Of a stretch of DNA of 38,089 nt, positions 1-9,892 are shown in pieces (within the stretch, counting starts at the first letter, position 1; every line of letters begins with the position of its first letter). A program made the position numbers and the translations under genes. Below the pieces are notes generated by a model. That model ran no database searches and was not told where the DNA came from. It worked only from the letters and a program-made list of their open reading frames with translations. The stretch comes from a virus (lineage: Duplodnaviria > Heunggongvirae > Uroviricota > Caudoviricetes): the IMG/VR virus record IMGVR_UViG_2917886563_000005. One strand, 5' to 3'.

Positions 1-477
1 ATGAAACTCATCAGTAATGATCTGCGCGATGGCGATAAGCTGCCGCATCGTCATGTCTTTAACGGCATGGGTTACGATGGCGATAATATTTCGCCGCATC
101 TGGCGTGGGATGATGTTCCTGCGGGAACCAAAAGTTTTGTTGTCACCTGCTATGACCCGGATGCGCCAACCGGCTCCGGCTGGTGGCACTGGGTAGTGGT
201 TAACTTACCCGCTGATACCCGCGTATTGCCGCAGGGGTTTGGCTCTGGTCTGGTAGCAATGCCAGACGGCGTTTTGCAGACGCGTACCGATTTTGGTAGA
301 ACCGGGTACGATGGCGCCGCGCCGCCGAAAGGCGAAACGCATCGCTACATTTTTACCGTTCACGCGCTGGATGTAGAACGTATTGATGTCGATGAAGGTG
401 CCAGCGGCGCGATGGTCGGGTTTAACGTCCATTTCCACTCTCTCGCCAGCGCCTCGATTACTGCGATGTTCAGTTAA
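1..477 (+). CDS. ybhB: Host PEBP-family protein YbhB (158 aa, complete); bio-side flank of the lambda att site
   Basis: Translation recalled as E. coli YbhB (PEBP/UPF0098 family); ORF starts at window position 1 and stops at 475-477. Confidence 0.85.
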   Translation: MKLISNDLRDGDKLPHRHVFNGMGYDGDNISPHLAWDDVPAGTKSFVVTCYDPDAPTGSGWWHWVVVNLPADTRVLPQGFGSGLVAMPDGVLQTRTDFGRTGYDGAAPPKGETHRYIFTVHALDVERIDVDEGASGAMVGFNVHFHSLASASITAMFS

Positions 478-485
478 TCACTCTG

Positions 486-508
486 CCAGATGGCGCAATG
501 CCATCTGG
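486..508 (+). terminator. Perfect 9-bp inverted repeat 9 nt after the ybhB stop; possible host terminator or REP-like hairpin
   Basis: ccagatggc-gcaat-gccatctgg read directly; no strong U-run follows. Confidence 0.3.
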
Positions 509-560
509 TATCACTTAAAGGTATTAAAAACAACTTTTTGTCTTTTTACCTTCCCGTTTC

Positions 561-725
561 GCTCAAGTTAGTATAAAAAAGCTGAACGCGAAACAGTAAA
601 AATCAATAATATCAATGCGTTACAATGCATTTAGTCTAAAAAATAGACTACATGATACTACAAAACACAACATATCCAGTCACTATGAATCAACTACTTA
701 GATAGTATTAGTGACCTGAGACAGA
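561..725 (-). other. attR: lambda-type att core (568..582, reverse orientation) with B' half-site toward ybhB and a lambda-like P arm on the prophage side
   Basis: ttagtataaaaaagc at 568..582 is the reverse complement of the lambda core GCTTTTTTATACTAA; cgctcaag precedes it; 583..725 resembles the lambda attP P arm (e.g. cagtcactatgaatcaactacttagat). Confidence 0.8.
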
Positions 726-1040
726 GCATTAGCGCAAGGTGATTTTTTGTCATCTTGCGCTAATTTTTTGTCACAAAAACATGTCGCACTCCAGAAGAGC
801 ACAAAGCCTTGCAATTCAGTGCAAAGCTTTGTGTGTCTCAGTTTTGTTTCATCAGTCACAGCACGCCATAGAATGCTGACTTGCTTGATGTGTCTGCGGT
901 TCACAATCCTTCAGCAATTTTCACAACTTGCCAGCAAACATCCAATGGCAACGCCTTATCGTCATGTTGCGCATTTACAAAATGCAATATAAATATGTTA
1001 AATTATTATAGAAATCACATAACGTTACGAGGGGTACACT

Positions 1041-2786
1041 GTGGGGATTTTTTTACTAGGCCGCAAGTTCGAAGGATCAAGCTTACTTTTTGATAAGGGA
1101 CGCTTATTTTTACAGAACAGCGTTGATGGAAATGTCTTCCTTGTAGTTGAGAAAGGAGGAAATCGAGCGTTTCTTCATACTGGTGAAAAATTTATAGATT
1201 TTGTTAGAGTTGGGCACTTGTCACATTTGAAATGCTATCTCTCACGTGAGAGCGACAGACTTTTATACTGCGTTTCATCATTAGGTGATGCTATTGAGAA
1301 GACAGTAACAGCAAACAGAACAAAAGCAAGTGGCTGGGAAACATTTGATATGCTTCCTGCAAAAGACTTAAGCGAATCATCCCTTAATCAAATAGAAATG
1401 CTTAAGGAAATATATTTTAAAAATGATGATTTAACATCTGTTTTCAACAGAATTGTTAGATCAGATTTGATTGACAAAGGAAGAACGATTGAAAAGCTAA
1501 TTGAAATAATGAGCGTCGACGATAAGACATATATCTCTTATCATCTATCTAAAAACATCAGTGAATTAGCAACGCTTTCTGATATTTCAGATGATGCGCT
1601 ATTTAAAGCATTTGTTTCAAACCTAACCAACTACAGCAAAAAAATATCTGTTATAGATGAAAAACTTGATTTTTTATCTAAGCTTTCGAACCAAATTATT
1701 TCTAAAAACAGCTGGATTGAACTAATTCATAATTTAAGAAAAATATCTCCACCAAAACATAAATCATGCATTGTTGCAACATGCAAAAATGAAGGTGTTT
1801 ATCTTATTGAGTGGATAGCTTACCATCTAAGCATTGGGTTTGATGCAATATTTATATATTCTAATGGTAATGATGATGGTTCTGACGAACTACTTAATAA
1901 TCTTCATAATGAAGGAATCATATACTACATAAAAAACATTGTTGGAGATGGTGTTAGTGCACAAAACAAGGCTTATGCTCATGCACTAACAATTAACAAG
2001 GAGGTTCTAAATTATGAATGGAGTCTTTTCATTGATATAGATGAATTTTTTGTTTTAAACGAATACATGTTTTCTTCCATCACTGATTATCTAGACTGGC
2101 AAAACAAAAATGAAACTGACGCAATTGCTTTAAACTGGATGTTTAGCAAACCAGTGGAAAATAGCGACTGGATAAACAATCCAATAACTAAAAGATTGCC
2201 ATATATTAATAAAGAAGCAAGCGCTCATATCAAAACATTTTTTAAGCCTCACAAATTCTCAGGCTCAACCCCTCATTTCCCATTGTGCAATAGCAATTAT
2301 AAGTTCGCATATAGAGACTCTTCAGGTAACATTCATGAAAAGTCCATCACAAAAAATGATTTATCATTTTCTAACAAACCACAAAACTCACACGCTTACA
2401 TTATTCATTACTTCAATAGAAGTATAGCTGAGTTTATTTGGAAATACTCTAGAAACAGAGGTAATCACCCAAATACAAAAAGCGGAAATAACTTTACAGA
2501 ACACTTATTTCAGTTCCTTGGCTTCTTCACATCATCATTAGACTCACCACGGTTCGTGGAGAATGAATCAATTGCTAAAATGACTGACATCATTGATTCA
2601 AAAATTAGCGAAATAGTAGCAAGCGAATCAATACAAATTGCGTATGAGAATGTTAAGAACAGGACAAGAGAGCGTTACGAATTAATCGAACCTTTATTTT
2701 GGGAGTATTTAAAGGGAAACATCAACTCAGAAAAACATAAAGACTCAATTTCAGATTTTATATCTAGATTTAAAGAAAAAGCCTAA
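1041..2786 (+). CDS. Cargo gene: 581-aa protein with N-terminal ~240-aa region of unknown function and C-terminal GT-A-fold glycosyltransferase-like domain; candidate lysogenic-conversion glycosyltransferase
   Basis: Motifs CIVATCKNEGVYLIEWIAYHLSIGFDAIFIYSNGNDDGSDELL and DIDEF look like GT2/GT92-type nucleotide-sugar transferases; visibly AT-rich versus flanks; GTG start at 1041 with GAGGGG 6 nt upstream (start uncertain, internal ATGs exist). Confidence 0.65.
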   Translation: MGIFLLGRKFEGSSLLFDKGRLFLQNSVDGNVFLVVEKGGNRAFLHTGEKFIDFVRVGHLSHLKCYLSRESDRLLYCVSSLGDAIEKTVTANRTKASGWETFDMLPAKDLSESSLNQIEMLKEIYFKNDDLTSVFNRIVRSDLIDKGRTIEKLIEIMSVDDKTYISYHLSKNISELATLSDISDDALFKAFVSNLTNYSKKISVIDEKLDFLSKLSNQIISKNSWIELIHNLRKISPPKHKSCIVATCKNEGVYLIEWIAYHLSIGFDAIFIYSNGNDDGSDELLNNLHNEGIIYYIKNIVGDGVSAQNKAYAHALTINKEVLNYEWSLFIDIDEFFVLNEYMFSSITDYLDWQNKNETDAIALNWMFSKPVENSDWINNPITKRLPYINKEASAHIKTFFKPHKFSGSTPHFPLCNSNYKFAYRDSSGNIHEKSITKNDLSFSNKPQNSHAYIIHYFNRSIAEFIWKYSRNRGNHPNTKSGNNFTEHLFQFLGFFTSSLDSPRFVENESIAKMTDIIDSKISEIVASESIQIAYENVKNRTRERYELIEPLFWEYLKGNINSEKHKDSISDFISRFKEKA

Positions 2787-5262: not shown

Positions 5263-5514
5263 ATGGGAAGAGATGACCCGCAATTTAATCTGCGGCTACC
5301 TTACGAATTAAAGGAAAAACTAAAACAGCGAGCCAAATCCAATGGTCGCTCTCTTAATTCAGAATTAGTTCAGATAGTGACTGATGCTGTATCAAAGCCA
5401 TCCAAAATTTCAGGCTATCGAGACGATGCGGAACGAATCGCTGATGAGCAGTCCGAACTTGTTAAGAAGATGGTGTTTGATACGCTGAAAGATTTGTACA
5501 AAAAACCCACCTGA
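5263..5514 (+). CDS. mnt: Mnt repressor (ribbon-helix-helix), 83 aa
   Basis: Translation MGRDDPQFNLRLPYELKEKLK...KKMVFDTLKDLYKKPT closely matches recalled P22 Mnt; GAGG upstream of ATG. Confidence 0.85.
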   Translation: MGRDDPQFNLRLPYELKEKLKQRAKSNGRSLNSELVQIVTDAVSKPSKISGYRDDAERIADEQSELVKKMVFDTLKDLYKKPT

Positions 5515-5530: not shown

Positions 5531-5950
5531 TTAGTCTTGCTTTGTGGACGGTATAAGTGATGCATTTGCCTCTTTTGGCTTCAAGGTATACATTCCACCA
5601 TTAAATGGATCTACAGCAAGCCAACCAATTAACCCACCAAACACAAGGTTTCCACCAATATACCAACCATTAGCATTGGCTTTGATTGGCAAGGTTACTG
5701 GCTCGTACCCATCCTTTTCCATAGTGATCTGATAGCTCTTTTTGCCAAAATAACTACCATCTGACTTGGCAAGAGTTACTCCTTGCGGGGTCTTACCTTG
5801 CGCAACAATCACGCCTGATTCGTCTTTTACCTTAAAGCTCGCACCGGAAGGATTGCTGTTCACTTGCACAAGCTGTGTTTCGTCACCAACAATAGTTGCG
5901 CACCCAGATAACAATATAGCGCCAGCAACGACGCCGATAATCCTCTTCAT
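5531..5950 (-). CDS. Predicted lipoprotein (139 aa), function unknown; candidate superinfection-exclusion factor
   Basis: Signal peptide with lipobox MKRIIGVVAGAILLSGC; sits where P22 carries sieA/immI genes. Confidence 0.65.
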   Translation of the reverse strand: MKRIIGVVAGAILLSGCATIVGDETQLVQVNSNPSGASFKVKDESGVIVAQGKTPQGVTLAKSDGSYFGKKSYQITMEKDGYEPVTLPIKANANGWYIGGNLVFGGLIGWLAVDPFNGGMYTLKPKEANASLIPSTKQD

Positions 5951-6471
5951 ATTACTTTCCGTTTTGTTAGAATCAGAAAGATCTTAATAATAAAAAGTAT
6001 TTTCGTGAAGATATTGTCGATTGAGTTAATAACTCATTTACACCCAACAGTGCCATGATGGCAAAGATAAGGAGAGTTAATCATATGAAAAAATCACTGT
6101 TAATTATCCCGCTTCTGCTGGCAGGGTGTGCAAAGGTTAGCGACTATCAGGCAAGTTGCGAACAACGCTATCCAAAGCTTAGCGATATGGCTAATTGCCT
6201 TGATGCTAGCGTGAAGAACGACTCACGCATGGCATCAGCACCAACACCTAAGTTATATGTCCTTGCTGCGAAGATGCTCGGGCAAGGTGTCGATGATGGC
6301 AAGATAAGTGACGCGCAGGCAAGGCTTGAGCTTCAGAATCTTTATGTTCAATTACAAAGCCAAGAACAAGCCCAACAAATAGCGCAAAGCCAAGCATTCC
6401 AGCAGGCTTTATTGGAGTGCCCCCAAGCCCGTAGACAAATCTGCCCTATAGTTTGAGCATAGGAGGAGTCT

Positions 6472-6756
6472 ATGGGCACACCACGATTTACCCCAGAGTT
6501 TAAGGAGGAAGCTGTCCGTCAGGTTACTGAACGGGGCTATTCCGTTGCCGATGTTTCTGAACGCCTCGGCGTATCGGCTCACAGCCTTTATAAGTGGGTC
6601 CGGTCAGTCAGACCGGATAACAGCGAGCATCAGGCGCAGGATTTACTGGATGCGCGGACGGAGATTCTCAGGCTTAAAGCGCAGCTTAAACGTACTGAGG
6701 AAGAACGGGATATTCTGAAAAAGGCAGCGCGGTACTTTGCAAGGGAGCCCGACTGA
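6472..6756 (+). CDS. IS3-family transposase OrfA (HTH, leucine zipper), 94 aa
   Basis: MGTPRFTPEFKEEAVRQV...LKKAARYFA is typical of IS3-family OrfA; AGGAGG RBS. Confidence 0.85.
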   Translation: MGTPRFTPEFKEEAVRQVTERGYSVADVSERLGVSAHSLYKWVRSVRPDNSEHQAQDLLDARTEILRLKAQLKRTEEERDILKKAARYFAREPD

Positions 6757-7607
6757 AGTACCGCTTCATCAACGATCACCGTGAAATCTGGTCGATCGTA
6801 ACAATGTGTCGGGTTCTGAAGGTCGCCCGTGCGGGATTTTACGTCTGGCTTCATCGCCCTGTTTCTGCCGGAGAAAAGGATAATCAGCGGTTGCTGGAGC
6901 TCATCCGCGATGCTTATGCACTGAGCGGCGGAGTCTACGGTTATCGCAGGGTTCACGGCGATCTTCGTGAAATCGGTGAAGTATGCAGCAGAAACCGTGT
7001 TGCCAGAATCATGAAGCGGAACAGGATACAGGCCGTACATGGCTATAAGGTCCCGCGTGGCGTCAGGGGAAGGCCGTCACTGATAGCTCCTAATCGCGTA
7101 CAGCGGGAATTTACGGTGGTAAAACCCAACCAGGTGTGGGTAACTGATATTACCTACATCCGCACCTGGCAGGGTTGGCTGTATCTGGCGGTGGTTATCG
7201 ATCTTTTTGCCCGTAATGTGGTGGGCTGGTCGATGAAACCAACGCTGTCGCGCGAGCTGGCACTGGATGCGCTGCTGATGGCAGTCTGGCGGCGTAAGCC
7301 TGCAGAAAACGTCATAGTGCACAGCGATCAGGGCAGTCAGTATGGCAGTGATGACTGGCAGCGGTTCTGCAGGGCCAACAATCTGGCGCCGAGCATGAGC
7401 CGTCGTGGCAACTGCTGGGATAATGCGGTGGCAGAATCGTTCTTCAGTTCACTGAAAAAAGAGCGCATCAGAAAGCGGATATATAAAACCCGGGACATGG
7501 CCCGGGCGGATATCTTCGATTACATTGAAGTGTTCTACAACCGGACCCGACGCCACAGTCATCTGGGTGGCGTCAGCCCGGAGGCCTTCGAAAAGGCCTC
7601 ACCGTGA
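6717..7607 (+). CDS. IS3-family transposase OrfB (DDE catalytic domain), made as an OrfAB fusion by -1 frameshift near GAAAAAG (6717..6723); first ATG of the OrfB frame is at 6804
   Basis: OrfB frame is open from the slippery run to 7607; conserved ...ITYIRTWQGWLYLAVVIDLF...HSDQGSQY...DNA... DDE-type motifs; stop lies within the right inverted repeat. Confidence 0.8.
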   Translation, partial: EKGSAVLCKGARLKYRFINDHREIWSIVTMCRVLKVARAGFYVWLHRPVSAGEKDNQRLLELIRDAYALSGGVYGYRRVHGDLREIGEVCSRNRVARIMKRNRIQAVHGYKVPRGVRGRPSLIAPNRVQREFTVVKPNQVWVTDITYIRTWQGWLYLAVVIDLFARNVVGWSMKPTLSRELALDALLMAVWRRKPAENVIVHSDQGSQYGSDDWQRFCRANNLAPSMSRRGNCWDNAVAESFFSSLKKERIRKRIYKTRDMARADIFDYIEVFYNRTRRHSHLGGVSPEAFEKASP

Positions 7608-7894
7608 GGACAGAAACTGTCTACCGGAATGTGGTCACTCCATTATTGAATTATCAGGCTGTAAACACAATGCAAGCGATCGAGCAAAAAGCGAGACAGC
7701 CTGTTATAACTCAACCCTATCCAACACGAGTTGACACTTACACAAACTGCAATTCAGGGTTTGGAAATACAGTCACATGCAACAGTAGCAGTAACATCAG
7801 ATAACAATCAGCAAAGGTATCGCCTATGCAGAGGGATACGATAAACCTCGCGTTCTACATATTTGATTTTTGCACGTTCCTGGTGTTTGAAAAG

Positions 7895-9892
7895 CTATTC
7901 TGACAACGCATCAGACTTAACACCCTGCGTCATAGCGTTAATAGCCTTTTGTGCCTGCTTCATGGCTTTCTCAAACGCTGTTGATCCGCGTGGGGTATTT
8001 GCCATTCGTAGCATTGCATTTCTGAATGGCTCACTCTCATAGGCGCGAGCAAGAAGGCCGTAGCTTACTGCTGCGCCAGTTGTCGCCGGGTTCATTGCCG
8101 TCCCATATCCGATAATGAACGGGATGGTTTGCTGCCCTGTTGGTGTTGTTACTGCCGCTTTTGCAGCCTGCTGCGTGGATTGCAGGTAGTTTTTCAATCC
8201 CCTCAGGTAAGCAGCATCCTGCCCCTTAAATGTGATACCCGTTTGGTTTTGCAGGATGTTAAGCTGTCGAAGGAACTGGTCAGGGGATCCACCTGATTTC
8301 TCTATCGCCTTTCCAATGATGCCATTGCGCATTTGCGCTCTTCCAACGCGACCAACTGAGTTATACAGCGTCTTAATTTCCGATTTGTTCTTGCTGAATA
8401 GCATGTTATTCACAACTTCCGGCGTCAGGTCGCCTTTCATGAGAATATTCTTCAGCCTGGTATTCTTTAGTTTCGCCGCTTCGTCAGCGTAGACGGCATT
8501 GGCCTGCTGATATTTACGAAGAGTATCATTGCCAAGATTCTGACCAATGGCACCATTGATATCGTCGGTCATCGCCTTGTAAACGCGCTGTATGGCGGCA
8601 TCGGAACGGTTTGGTAACACTGGTCGCTCACCCTTCACGTCCATTCTGAACTGGCTGCGCAGATCGCTTAATTGCTTCAAATCCAGATTTACCGGACCAT
8701 CAGGACCAGCATTGCGAATAAGCTCATCACGATAGGATTGAAGTTTTGAAATCGTCTCGTTATCAGCGACCTTACCAAGCTTCTGCAGGTTAGATATCTC
8801 AGTATCAATCTGCTGAATTGCTCGCACAGGCTGAATGTTGACTCCCGCCATTGCATTCTGAACCTGTTCAAGTCGATTACCTGCAGCACGACGAATTCCT
8901 GATGTTTTCGCTTTAAGGCTTTCAATAACAACAGCTGGATCATACTCACCGAATTTATCAGCAAATCTCTGCACCAACTGGCTTCTCGCTTCCTGTTGCG
9001 TTGCTCTCATTCCGCTTGTGCCAGCCAGAGGGATATTTTCTGCTGTAGTCTGCGCCATTTTTCCGACGCGGGAAGTAGGTTGTAACAGGTCTGTGGTGTG
9101 CAGAGGCACTCCTTCACGCTCTGCAAACCTGATAGCCTGTTGCGCTTCTGGCGCTATCGCACCACGAACTCCACGATAAGCAGCACCTAATCCACGTCCG
9201 GCAGCGTTAATAGCTCCGCCAGCCAGAACGCCAACGCCTAAGTCGGTGGCTAGTGCTTCCGCATCATCTTTCACACTGTTTGCAGCAAGTGATCCAACTG
9301 CGTTTTCAGCGAGAAGGCGAGTTGCACCCTGAGCAATTCGACCAGCAAGTGTTGGTGCCTGTGTTGCCGCTCTCTCAACGCCGGCAGGAGTGAGGTAAGG
9401 CAATGCTTCAGCAAATACCCTGCCCTCTGTCGTTTGTGGAGTCAGCGCACCTTGCTGAAGGCCAAAGTCCTGCTCTAATCCATGCGTTGTTACTCGTGGC
9501 GCTGGTTGATATGTTCCATCGCCAATGCCGAGTTTACCGCCAGCCCATGCAGCCGCGCTTGTTACAGCATCGGCAACCGATGCAGGTATGTTTGCCACGT
9601 TCACGCCAGCCTGCACCAGTCCGCGACCAGTCTCTTTTACTGCTTCGCCAAGATCAGACATAAATCCACTTTGCTGTGGTTGTTGCTGTGCTACTGGTTG
9701 CTGTGTCTCCACTGGCTGCACAGATGGCAATGGATAGGCAGCATAGAAAGCTTGCTTAGCCTGCTCTGCATTTTCTCCGGCTTGCGGGGCCACGACTTCA
9801 TTGAAGTATTGCTCCTGAGCCTGCGCTTTTTGTTCTGGTGCTAACGCCTGATACTGTGGAGAGGCGATAACATCTTTCCATGCTTTAGCCAT
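7895..9892 (-). CDS. P22 gp16-like ejection (E) protein
   Basis: Position and size (665 aa) in the conserved P22 order 4-10-26-14-7-20-16; Ala/Gly/Gln-rich. Confidence 0.7.
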   Translation of the reverse strand: MAKAWKDVIASPQYQALAPEQKAQAQEQYFNEVVAPQAGENAEQAKQAFYAAYPLPSVQPVETQQPVAQQQPQQSGFMSDLGEAVKETGRGLVQAGVNVANIPASVADAVTSAAAWAGGKLGIGDGTYQPAPRVTTHGLEQDFGLQQGALTPQTTEGRVFAEALPYLTPAGVERAATQAPTLAGRIAQGATRLLAENAVGSLAANSVKDDAEALATDLGVGVLAGGAINAAGRGLGAAYRGVRGAIAPEAQQAIRFAEREGVPLHTTDLLQPTSRVGKMAQTTAENIPLAGTSGMRATQQEARSQLVQRFADKFGEYDPAVVIESLKAKTSGIRRAAGNRLEQVQNAMAGVNIQPVRAIQQIDTEISNLQKLGKVADNETISKLQSYRDELIRNAGPDGPVNLDLKQLSDLRSQFRMDVKGERPVLPNRSDAAIQRVYKAMTDDINGAIGQNLGNDTLRKYQQANAVYADEAAKLKNTRLKNILMKGDLTPEVVNNMLFSKNKSEIKTLYNSVGRVGRAQMRNGIIGKAIEKSGGSPDQFLRQLNILQNQTGITFKGQDAAYLRGLKNYLQSTQQAAKAAVTTPTGQQTIPFIIGYGTAMNPATTGAAVSYGLLARAYESEPFRNAMLRMANTPRGSTAFEKAMKQAQKAINAMTQGVKSDALSE

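Follow-up and report, generated by a model that had tools for sequence, protein, structure and literature searches.

The window analysed here, a stretch of 38,089 nucleotides assigned to a virus of the Caudoviricetes (IMG/VR record IMGVR_UViG_2917886563_000005), carries a complete copy of the insertion sequence ISEc24. We are highly confident that this copy lies in codon 110 of a gene for a 161-residue lipoprotein in a P22-like prophage and that the insertion duplicated the target TTAT. The element (IS3 family, 1230 bp, plus strand) extends from 6413 to 7642. It is a catalogued, already known element, and its insertion is a routine event. An earlier note, made from the sequence of the window, had proposed that an intact IS3-family element splits the lipoprotein gene. 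This is confirmed by the presence of orfA and orfB and by matches to HTH_Tnp_1, rve and transpos_IS3.

To place the element, positions 6250-7800 were compared with 5,426 complete E. coli genomes. The ISEc24 alignment covered positions 164..1393 of this query, corresponding to 6413..7642, and the DNA on either side was unrelated (flanks of one copy inspected). Identity to the E. coli copies amounted to 99.3% over the whole span (1230/1230 bp), and full-length ISEc24 at this level occurred in 545 of the genomes, with a median of one matching place per genome having any. The matching copies are labelled 'IS3-like element ISEc24 family transposase' by RefSeq/PGAP, so the name is given by full-length near-identity to copies annotated in this way. 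No observation in the analysis spoke against this identity. A literature search for 'ISEc24' returned two passing mentions only.

In comparison with E. coli copies of ISEc24, the length of 1230 bp, the ends, the orfA/orfB layout and the frameshift site are the same, whereas the insertion site is new. Relative to one common E. coli copy 8 SNPs were counted, none of them in the inverted repeats and none in the frameshift region. The termini read TGGAGTG at 6413 and CACTCCA ending at 7642. ISEc15 (about 89% identity) and two remoter relatives (77-80%) start and stop at positions identical to those of ISEc24, with ends of the form TGGA(G/C)TG...CA(C/G)TCCA. Additionally, isolated contigs of 1230-1235 bp are found in several draft genomes belonging to other genera.

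A repeat search returned inverted-repeat arms at 6410-6437 and 7618-7645, which reach outward past the ends proposed in the earlier note. Within these arms the left terminal inverted repeat occupies 6413..6437 and the right one 7618..7642. The left end has the sequence TGGAGTGCCCCCAAGCCCGTAGACA from 6413 inward, and the right end, reverse-complemented and starting at 7642, has TGGAGTGACCACATTCCGGTAGACA; 20 of the 25 positions agree, and neither repeat differs from its counterpart in the E. coli copy used for comparison. The earlier claim of imperfect terminal inverted repeats thus holds in substance, but the pair TAGACA...TGTCTA on which it was based is an inner block of the 25-bp repeats. Terminal inverted repeats of IS3-family elements begin with 5'-TG and finish with CA-3' (PMC6211511), as is found at 6413 and 7642; the TA...TA ends of the earlier proposal would break this rule.

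The inverted repeats are directly flanked by a perfect 4-bp target-site duplication, TTAT, at 6409..6412 on the left and 7643..7646 on the right. Target duplications in the IS3 family are short (3-5 bp), and the TTAT present on both sides here corresponds to a single TTAT in the empty allele. Among 39 relatives surveyed, a 3-bp duplication was found in four and a 4-bp duplication in none; most of them adjoin inverted-repeat-like sequence in place of a duplication. The length of 4 bp therefore rests on this one site and its comparison with the empty allele. The duplication is clean here, in contrast to the single E. coli chromosomal ISEc24 copy examined, which is without one. In the IS407 subgroup OrfB clusters with that of IS407 and IS1222, and the duplication is 4 bp long. 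By analogy, the duplication of four bases together with the TGGAGTGCCCCC-type ends is suggestive, but only that, of this subgroup.

The interrupted gene is encoded on the plus strand in two parts. Its 5' part (6085..6412) holds codons 1-109 and one nucleotide of codon 110, with the signal peptide MKKSLLIIPLLLAGC and the lipobox LLAGC, and its 3' part (7647..7804) holds the last two nucleotides of codon 110, codons 111-161 and the stop codon. In the present sequence the reading frame starting at 6085 continues into ISEc24 and stops at 6456, and a short open reading frame ends at 7804. Removal of 6413..7646 (1234 nt) restores a lipoprotein of 161 residues. The earlier note had suggested a search for an uninterrupted allele in related strains, and such an allele exists in E. 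coli CAVp367. A query across the rebuilt junction (479 nt) found 179 complete E. coli genomes with a coverage of at least 80%; the best matches listed are single ungapped alignments. The CAVp367 coding sequence (WP_048264262.1, 486 nt) has the same start, encodes an identical protein of 161 residues and differs from the joined 6085..6412 and 7647..7804 at three positions, all synonymous. The sequence of its empty site across the junction is GCAGGCTTTATTGAATTAT, in which TTAT occurs once and CCG is absent. The phage protein profile phrog_6067, which has 161 positions, matches the joined protein over residues 1-161 of 161 (E = 3.4e-110, PHROGs). With regard to function, no match was obtained in Pfam, NCBIfam or the PDB sequences, and PHROGs lists the family as 'unknown function'.

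These results bear directly on the borders drawn in the earlier note, namely an element of 1192 bp at 6432..7623 with TAGACA/TGTCTA ends, flanked by a CCG duplication and inserted into a native lipoprotein of about 174 residues. This model has some apparent support: 6085..6431 and 7627..7804 join to 525 nt in frame and without a stop, TAGACA and TGTCTA are indeed inverted, and CCG is present on both sides. However, in ISEc24, ISEc15 and related copies the homology takes in a further 19 bp at either end before the unrelated flanks begin, and the empty allele lacks these 38 bp as well as one TTAT. The homology spans 6413 to 7642, and the empty site ...GGCTTTATTGAATT... contains no CCG. The proposed ends were thus set 19 bases inside the true ones at either border, and the CCG triplets at 6429-6431 and 7624-7626 are insertion sequence inside the inverted repeats, being part of CCCG in the left repeat and of a palindromic CCGG in the right one. 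The phage profile of 161 positions also speaks against the 174-residue protein, being matched from end to end by the 161-residue version. In the longer version 13 residues (ECPQARNVVTPLL) derive from the outermost 19 bp at either end of the element. Its frame is kept only because the excisions of 1195 and 1234 nt are 39 nt, or 13 codons, apart in length, and the ends of the element contain no stop in the lipoprotein frame. The in-frame reconstruction is a coincidence. On the basis of the homology spans, the empty site and the ends of the relatives, the 1192-bp element with a CCG duplication was rejected, and we assign it practically no probability.

The coding content of ISEc24 at 6413..7642 is that of an IS3-family element. 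The first gene, orfA (6472..6756, plus strand), encodes a DNA-binding protein of 94 residues with a helix-turn-helix domain (HTH_Tnp_1, 3.3e-19). The orfB frame (6699..7607, plus strand), which would be entered at 6723 after a shift, lies in the -1 frame relative to orfA; a 267-residue open reading frame occupies 6804..7607 and the frame is open back to 6699. It matches HTH_21 (5.1e-16) and rve (1.5e-30), the DDE core of OrfB, and also rve_2, and reaches 360.5 bits with the NCBIfam model transpos_IS3 (NF033516), for which the cut-off is 160. The conserved OrfB blocks VTDITY, HSDQGSQY and CWDNAVAESF are present. The predicted OrfAB fusion has 378 residues, equal in length to the joined coding sequence in RefSeq. 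It shares 376 of 378 residues with an E. coli copy, and the two differing residues, E52 and V216, are both seen in relatives. A scan of 5900-8000 for promoters and terminators performed no better than on shuffled sequence, and inspection by eye for a junction promoter of the IS911 type gave no convincing candidate.

The two genes overlap, and the overlap contains an A-rich slip site, G_AAA_AAG at 6717..6723 on the plus strand, which is read as CUG AAA AAG GCA in the orfA frame. It is the only slippery run in the overlap, in agreement with the earlier proposal that OrfB is reached by a -1 shift near GAAAAAG. RefSeq applies the label 'programmed frameshift' to ISEc24, to ISEc15 and to an unnamed IS3-family relative. 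The same note had remarked that the run is not the canonical heptamer A_AAA_AAG. This is correct, and a comparison of 70 relatives with a locatable site, drawn from 80 loci and the E. coli relatives, revealed a pattern according to host. All Enterobacterales sampled have CUG AAA AAG (ISEc24, ISEc15 and elements of Mixta, Intestinirhabdus, Erwinia, Kosakonia, Rouxiella, Winslowiella, Kluyvera and Huaxiibacter), whereas those of Pseudomonas, Acinetobacter, Marinobacter and other remoter hosts have (C/U)UA AAA AAG or (C/U)UA AAA AAA. Since G_AAA_AAG is common to all Enterobacterales relatives sampled, it is a trait of this branch and not damage to this copy. It may have arisen from a canonical A_AAA_AAG or A_AAA_AAA by a synonymous change of the leucine codon from CUA to CUG.

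Five nucleotides past the slip site a stem-loop at 6729..6764 (plus strand) is a likely stimulator of frameshifting. Its helix core of 9 bp pairs 6729-6737 with 6756-6764 (GCGGUACUU/AAGUACCGC), and in the minimum-energy fold (-17.7 kcal/mol) the helix reaches 11 bp. The folding energy is not significant (z = -1.08 for 6690-6800 and z = -1.77 for the hairpin alone), so the stem-loop is supported by covariation and not by energy. Across 52 distinct sequences a standard pair was found in 91.7% of the cells, compared to 34-47% when the partner was slid by 1-3 columns. In 27 cells both sides of a pair were altered, and the observed covariation score was reached by none of 500 shuffles, a count that is not a probability, since the sequences are related to one another and the stretch encodes protein in both of two frames. 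The stronger evidence for the helix comes from the slid controls and from G-C to C-G swaps at three adjacent pairs.

A signal of this kind fits known practice in the IS3 family, for which sites of the A_AAG type whose first codon is imperfect have been described (PMC5009743). In E. coli A_AAG alone is a site for -1 shifts, the efficiency of which is tuned by the two preceding bases (Atkins et al., PMC5009743), and re-pairing of the first codon is imperfect at the sites of IS1222 (G_CGA_AAG) and IS3 (C_CAA_AAG) (PMC5009743). Similar to the signals of IS3, IS1222 and IS911, the one found here combines a -1 shift at a site containing A_AAG with RNA structure downstream. It differs in its first codon, AAA after G, for which two of three positions can re-pair and a G:U pair is possible. 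The stimulator predicted here is a stem-loop, which may or may not resemble the more elaborate three-way junction of IS911. With only a G:U-type match available to the first tRNA after the shift, frameshifting and hence the supply of transposase may be low. OrfAB could in principle also be produced by transcriptional slippage on the run of A, as is used by some IS3-family elements such as IS1447 with nine A (PMC6211511). We regard this as very improbable: the run here has five A only, the covarying structure lies at a spacing typical of stimulators of ribosomal -1 frameshifting, and in E. coli A_AAG is well characterised as a site of ribosomal shifting (PMC5009743).

With ribosomal frameshifting as the preferred reading, the likely course of events can be drawn by analogy with the IS3 family. 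Normal translation would yield OrfA alone. Aided by the stem-loop, some ribosomes would slip by -1 at G_AAA_AAG, where tRNA-Lys would shift from AAG to AAA, and would thereby produce the OrfAB transposase of 378 residues. This protein would then move the element by a copy-out/paste-in route through a circular intermediate.

Judged from its sequence, the element is probably able to transpose. It might instead be a relic that is complete but immobile, for example if G_AAA_AAG gave too little frameshifting. Such a view could draw on the first codon of the heptamer, which is not fully slippery, on the canonical A_AAA_AAG or A_AAA_AAA kept by the remoter relatives and on the low copy number of ISEc24, with its median of one place per carrying E. 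coli genome. Nevertheless, the fixation of G_AAA_AAG in the Enterobacterales sampled, together with intact fusions of 378 residues, points to a working signal and not to decay. The helix has been kept through compensatory changes, and a perfect duplication at a site without insertion in any other genome indicates recent transposition. We therefore consider an inactive relic unlikely.

ISEc15 and the relatives from Enterobacterales (Mixta, Intestinirhabdus, Erwinia, Kosakonia, Rouxiella) have ISEc24-like ends, G_AAA_AAG and the same helix, and their OrfAB proteins are 84-95% identical to that of this copy. The 378-residue fusion was obtained for all nine enterobacterial sequences translated, including that of this window. 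Elements with G_AAA_AAG come from eight genera or more, and numerous plasmids carry them. Unlike the present one, many copies of ISEc15 and its enterobacterial relatives are without a target duplication and have, adjacent to one of their ends, a further block of about 40 bp that resembles an inverted repeat.

With regard to the age of the insertion, none of the 5,426 complete E. coli genomes spans either of the two junctions, and the exact left junction had no match in contigs of one genome per species, in viral contigs or in metagenome contigs. The perfect duplication, the absence of the junction elsewhere and the intact state of the copy point towards a recent, private insertion by a functional element. 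The earlier description of the element as recent and possibly active is thus probably right as to its recency, and its activity is predicted from sequence features. A junction found nowhere else might also arise by misassembly, with a repeat contig misplaced in the prophage, all the more as insertion sequence copies frequently end up in assemblies as contigs of their own, about 1230 bp long. A misjoin would, however, not generate an exact 4-bp duplication at the termini of the element with colinear gene halves in frame, and we consider an artefact of this kind extremely improbable. The insertion is therefore taken as genuine and as probably recent and private to this genome.

The surroundings identify the insertion site as part of a P22-like (Lederbergvirus) prophage located beside ybhB. 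The window begins in the chromosomal gene ybhB (NCBIfam PRK10257), which is 94.5-96% identical to the E. coli copies. As the identity reaches only this level, the host may belong to a divergent Escherichia lineage. ybhB is followed by an open reading frame resembling family-2 glycosyltransferases, a tailspike gene and an Arc/Mnt repressor gene (5263..5514), then by a lipoprotein gene of 139 residues on the minus strand (phrog_6823) and the interrupted lipoprotein gene (phrog_6067). Beyond the latter lie a gene for a gp16-like DNA transfer (ejection) protein of 665 residues and virion genes of the P22 type. Among phage records, Enterobacteria phage IME10 (Lederbergvirus) comes closest, with 95.4% identity over 62% of the first 25 kb. 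The lipoprotein gene is thus situated in the variable region between mnt and gene 16. In P22 this region harbours sieA, located between gene 16 and mnt and present in only 22 of 66 P22-like phages (PMC10883804). The interrupted gene takes the same variable position, but its sequence is unrelated to that of SieA, a protein of the inner membrane, and here two lipoprotein genes (phrog_6067 and phrog_6823) are found instead, neither of them with a match in Pfam, NCBIfam or the PDB sequences. As a speculation from position alone, the interrupted lipoprotein, which shares this position with its neighbour on the opposite strand, might be expressed in the lysogen and serve in exclusion or surface modification.

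By its position, the insertion cuts the lipoprotein after residue 109, so that 52 C-terminal residues are lost and a tail of 14 residues encoded by the element is gained. In view of this loss and addition the disrupted lipoprotein is most likely inactivated. Polar effects downstream are not expected, since no other gene follows on this strand before the gp16-like gene, which runs convergently.

For annotation, ISEc24 should be recorded at 6413..7642 with TTAT as its target duplication, and the lipoprotein gene as a pseudogene of a protein of 161 residues (phrog_6067) and not of 174. The case also illustrates that an in-frame reconstruction together with a short flanking repeat is no proof of the borders of an insertion sequence. 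Here an inner block of the inverted repeats and a palindromic CCGG mimicked ends plus duplication, and only other copies of the element and the empty site were decisive.

In biological terms, we are dealing with a routine and probably recent insertion into an accessory gene of a prophage. Two consequences would go beyond this. If G_AAA_AAG is a deliberately weakened signal, it would keep the supply of transposase, and with it the copy number of the element, low. If the lipoprotein has a role in exclusion or surface modification, the insertion of ISEc24 would alter the susceptibility of the host to phages. We regard these two possibilities, both of them modest, as rather unlikely.

In roughly two thirds of 39 related insertion sequence (IS) copies surveyed in other genomes, the ~40 bp directly adjoining one end of the element resemble an IS end themselves. 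This block either repeats the inverted repeat of the element itself or corresponds to the end of another IS3-type element (TGAATCGCCCC...TAGACA...). It was found in the ~40 bp upstream of the left inverted repeat, IRL, at loci L007, L015, L029, L039, L040, L045 and L058-L060, and likewise upstream at L020, L024, L027, L028, L052-L054, L056, L062-L064 and L069. At L013, L025, L027, L044 and L084 it lies in the ~40 bp downstream of the right inverted repeat, IRR. On Klebsiella plasmids, ISEc15 copies similarly span 1270 bp, aligned in two pieces. Insertion of the related copies looks to be targeted beside inverted-repeat-like sequences, as has been described for IS911. The ISEc24 copy in the window is of a different kind in comparison to these relatives.

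Target duplications of 3 bp were observed in only four of the 39 surveyed copies, and duplications of 4 bp in none of them. The chromosomal ISEc24 copy of E. coli Ecol_542 (L002; 1481-1500 and 2731-2750) adjoins a tyrosine recombinase gene; it lacks a target duplication, and the short inverted hexamers CTCAAG and CTTGAG occur on its flanks. Two relatives are one base shorter right after the A-run: Erwinia tasmaniensis at ~915 (L025, CTGAAAAAGCCGC) and Pseudomonas lundensis at ~914 (L031, TTAAAAAAGCAAC). The missing base may fuse orfA and orfB into a single reading frame, for which no frameshift would be needed.

Next to the interrupted lipoprotein gene, and transcribed divergently from it, a second gene (5531..5950, minus strand) encodes a 139-aa lipoprotein with the lipobox LLSGC, belonging to phrog_6823 (unknown function). 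Its sole domain hint, to PEGA, is weak and below the cut-off (E = 0.0037). Both lipoprotein genes are adjacent in E. coli CAVp367 as well, in the same arrangement as in the window.

Between ybhB and the tailspike gene, a 581-aa ORF (1041..2786, plus strand) carries a family-2 glycosyltransferase domain (Glyco_tranf_2_4, 7.1e-18); PHROGs and NCBIfam gave no match. P22-like prophages often carry O-antigen-modifying genes at this position. A comparison of the preceding chromosomal flank (1..1040), comprising ybhB and the intergenic region, with 5,426 complete E. coli genomes gives identities of only 94.5-96%. The ISEc24 copy in the window has 8 SNPs relative to its best E. coli matches, all of which are listed at 99.3% identity. 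The host may belong to a divergent Escherichia lineage rather than to typical E. coli.
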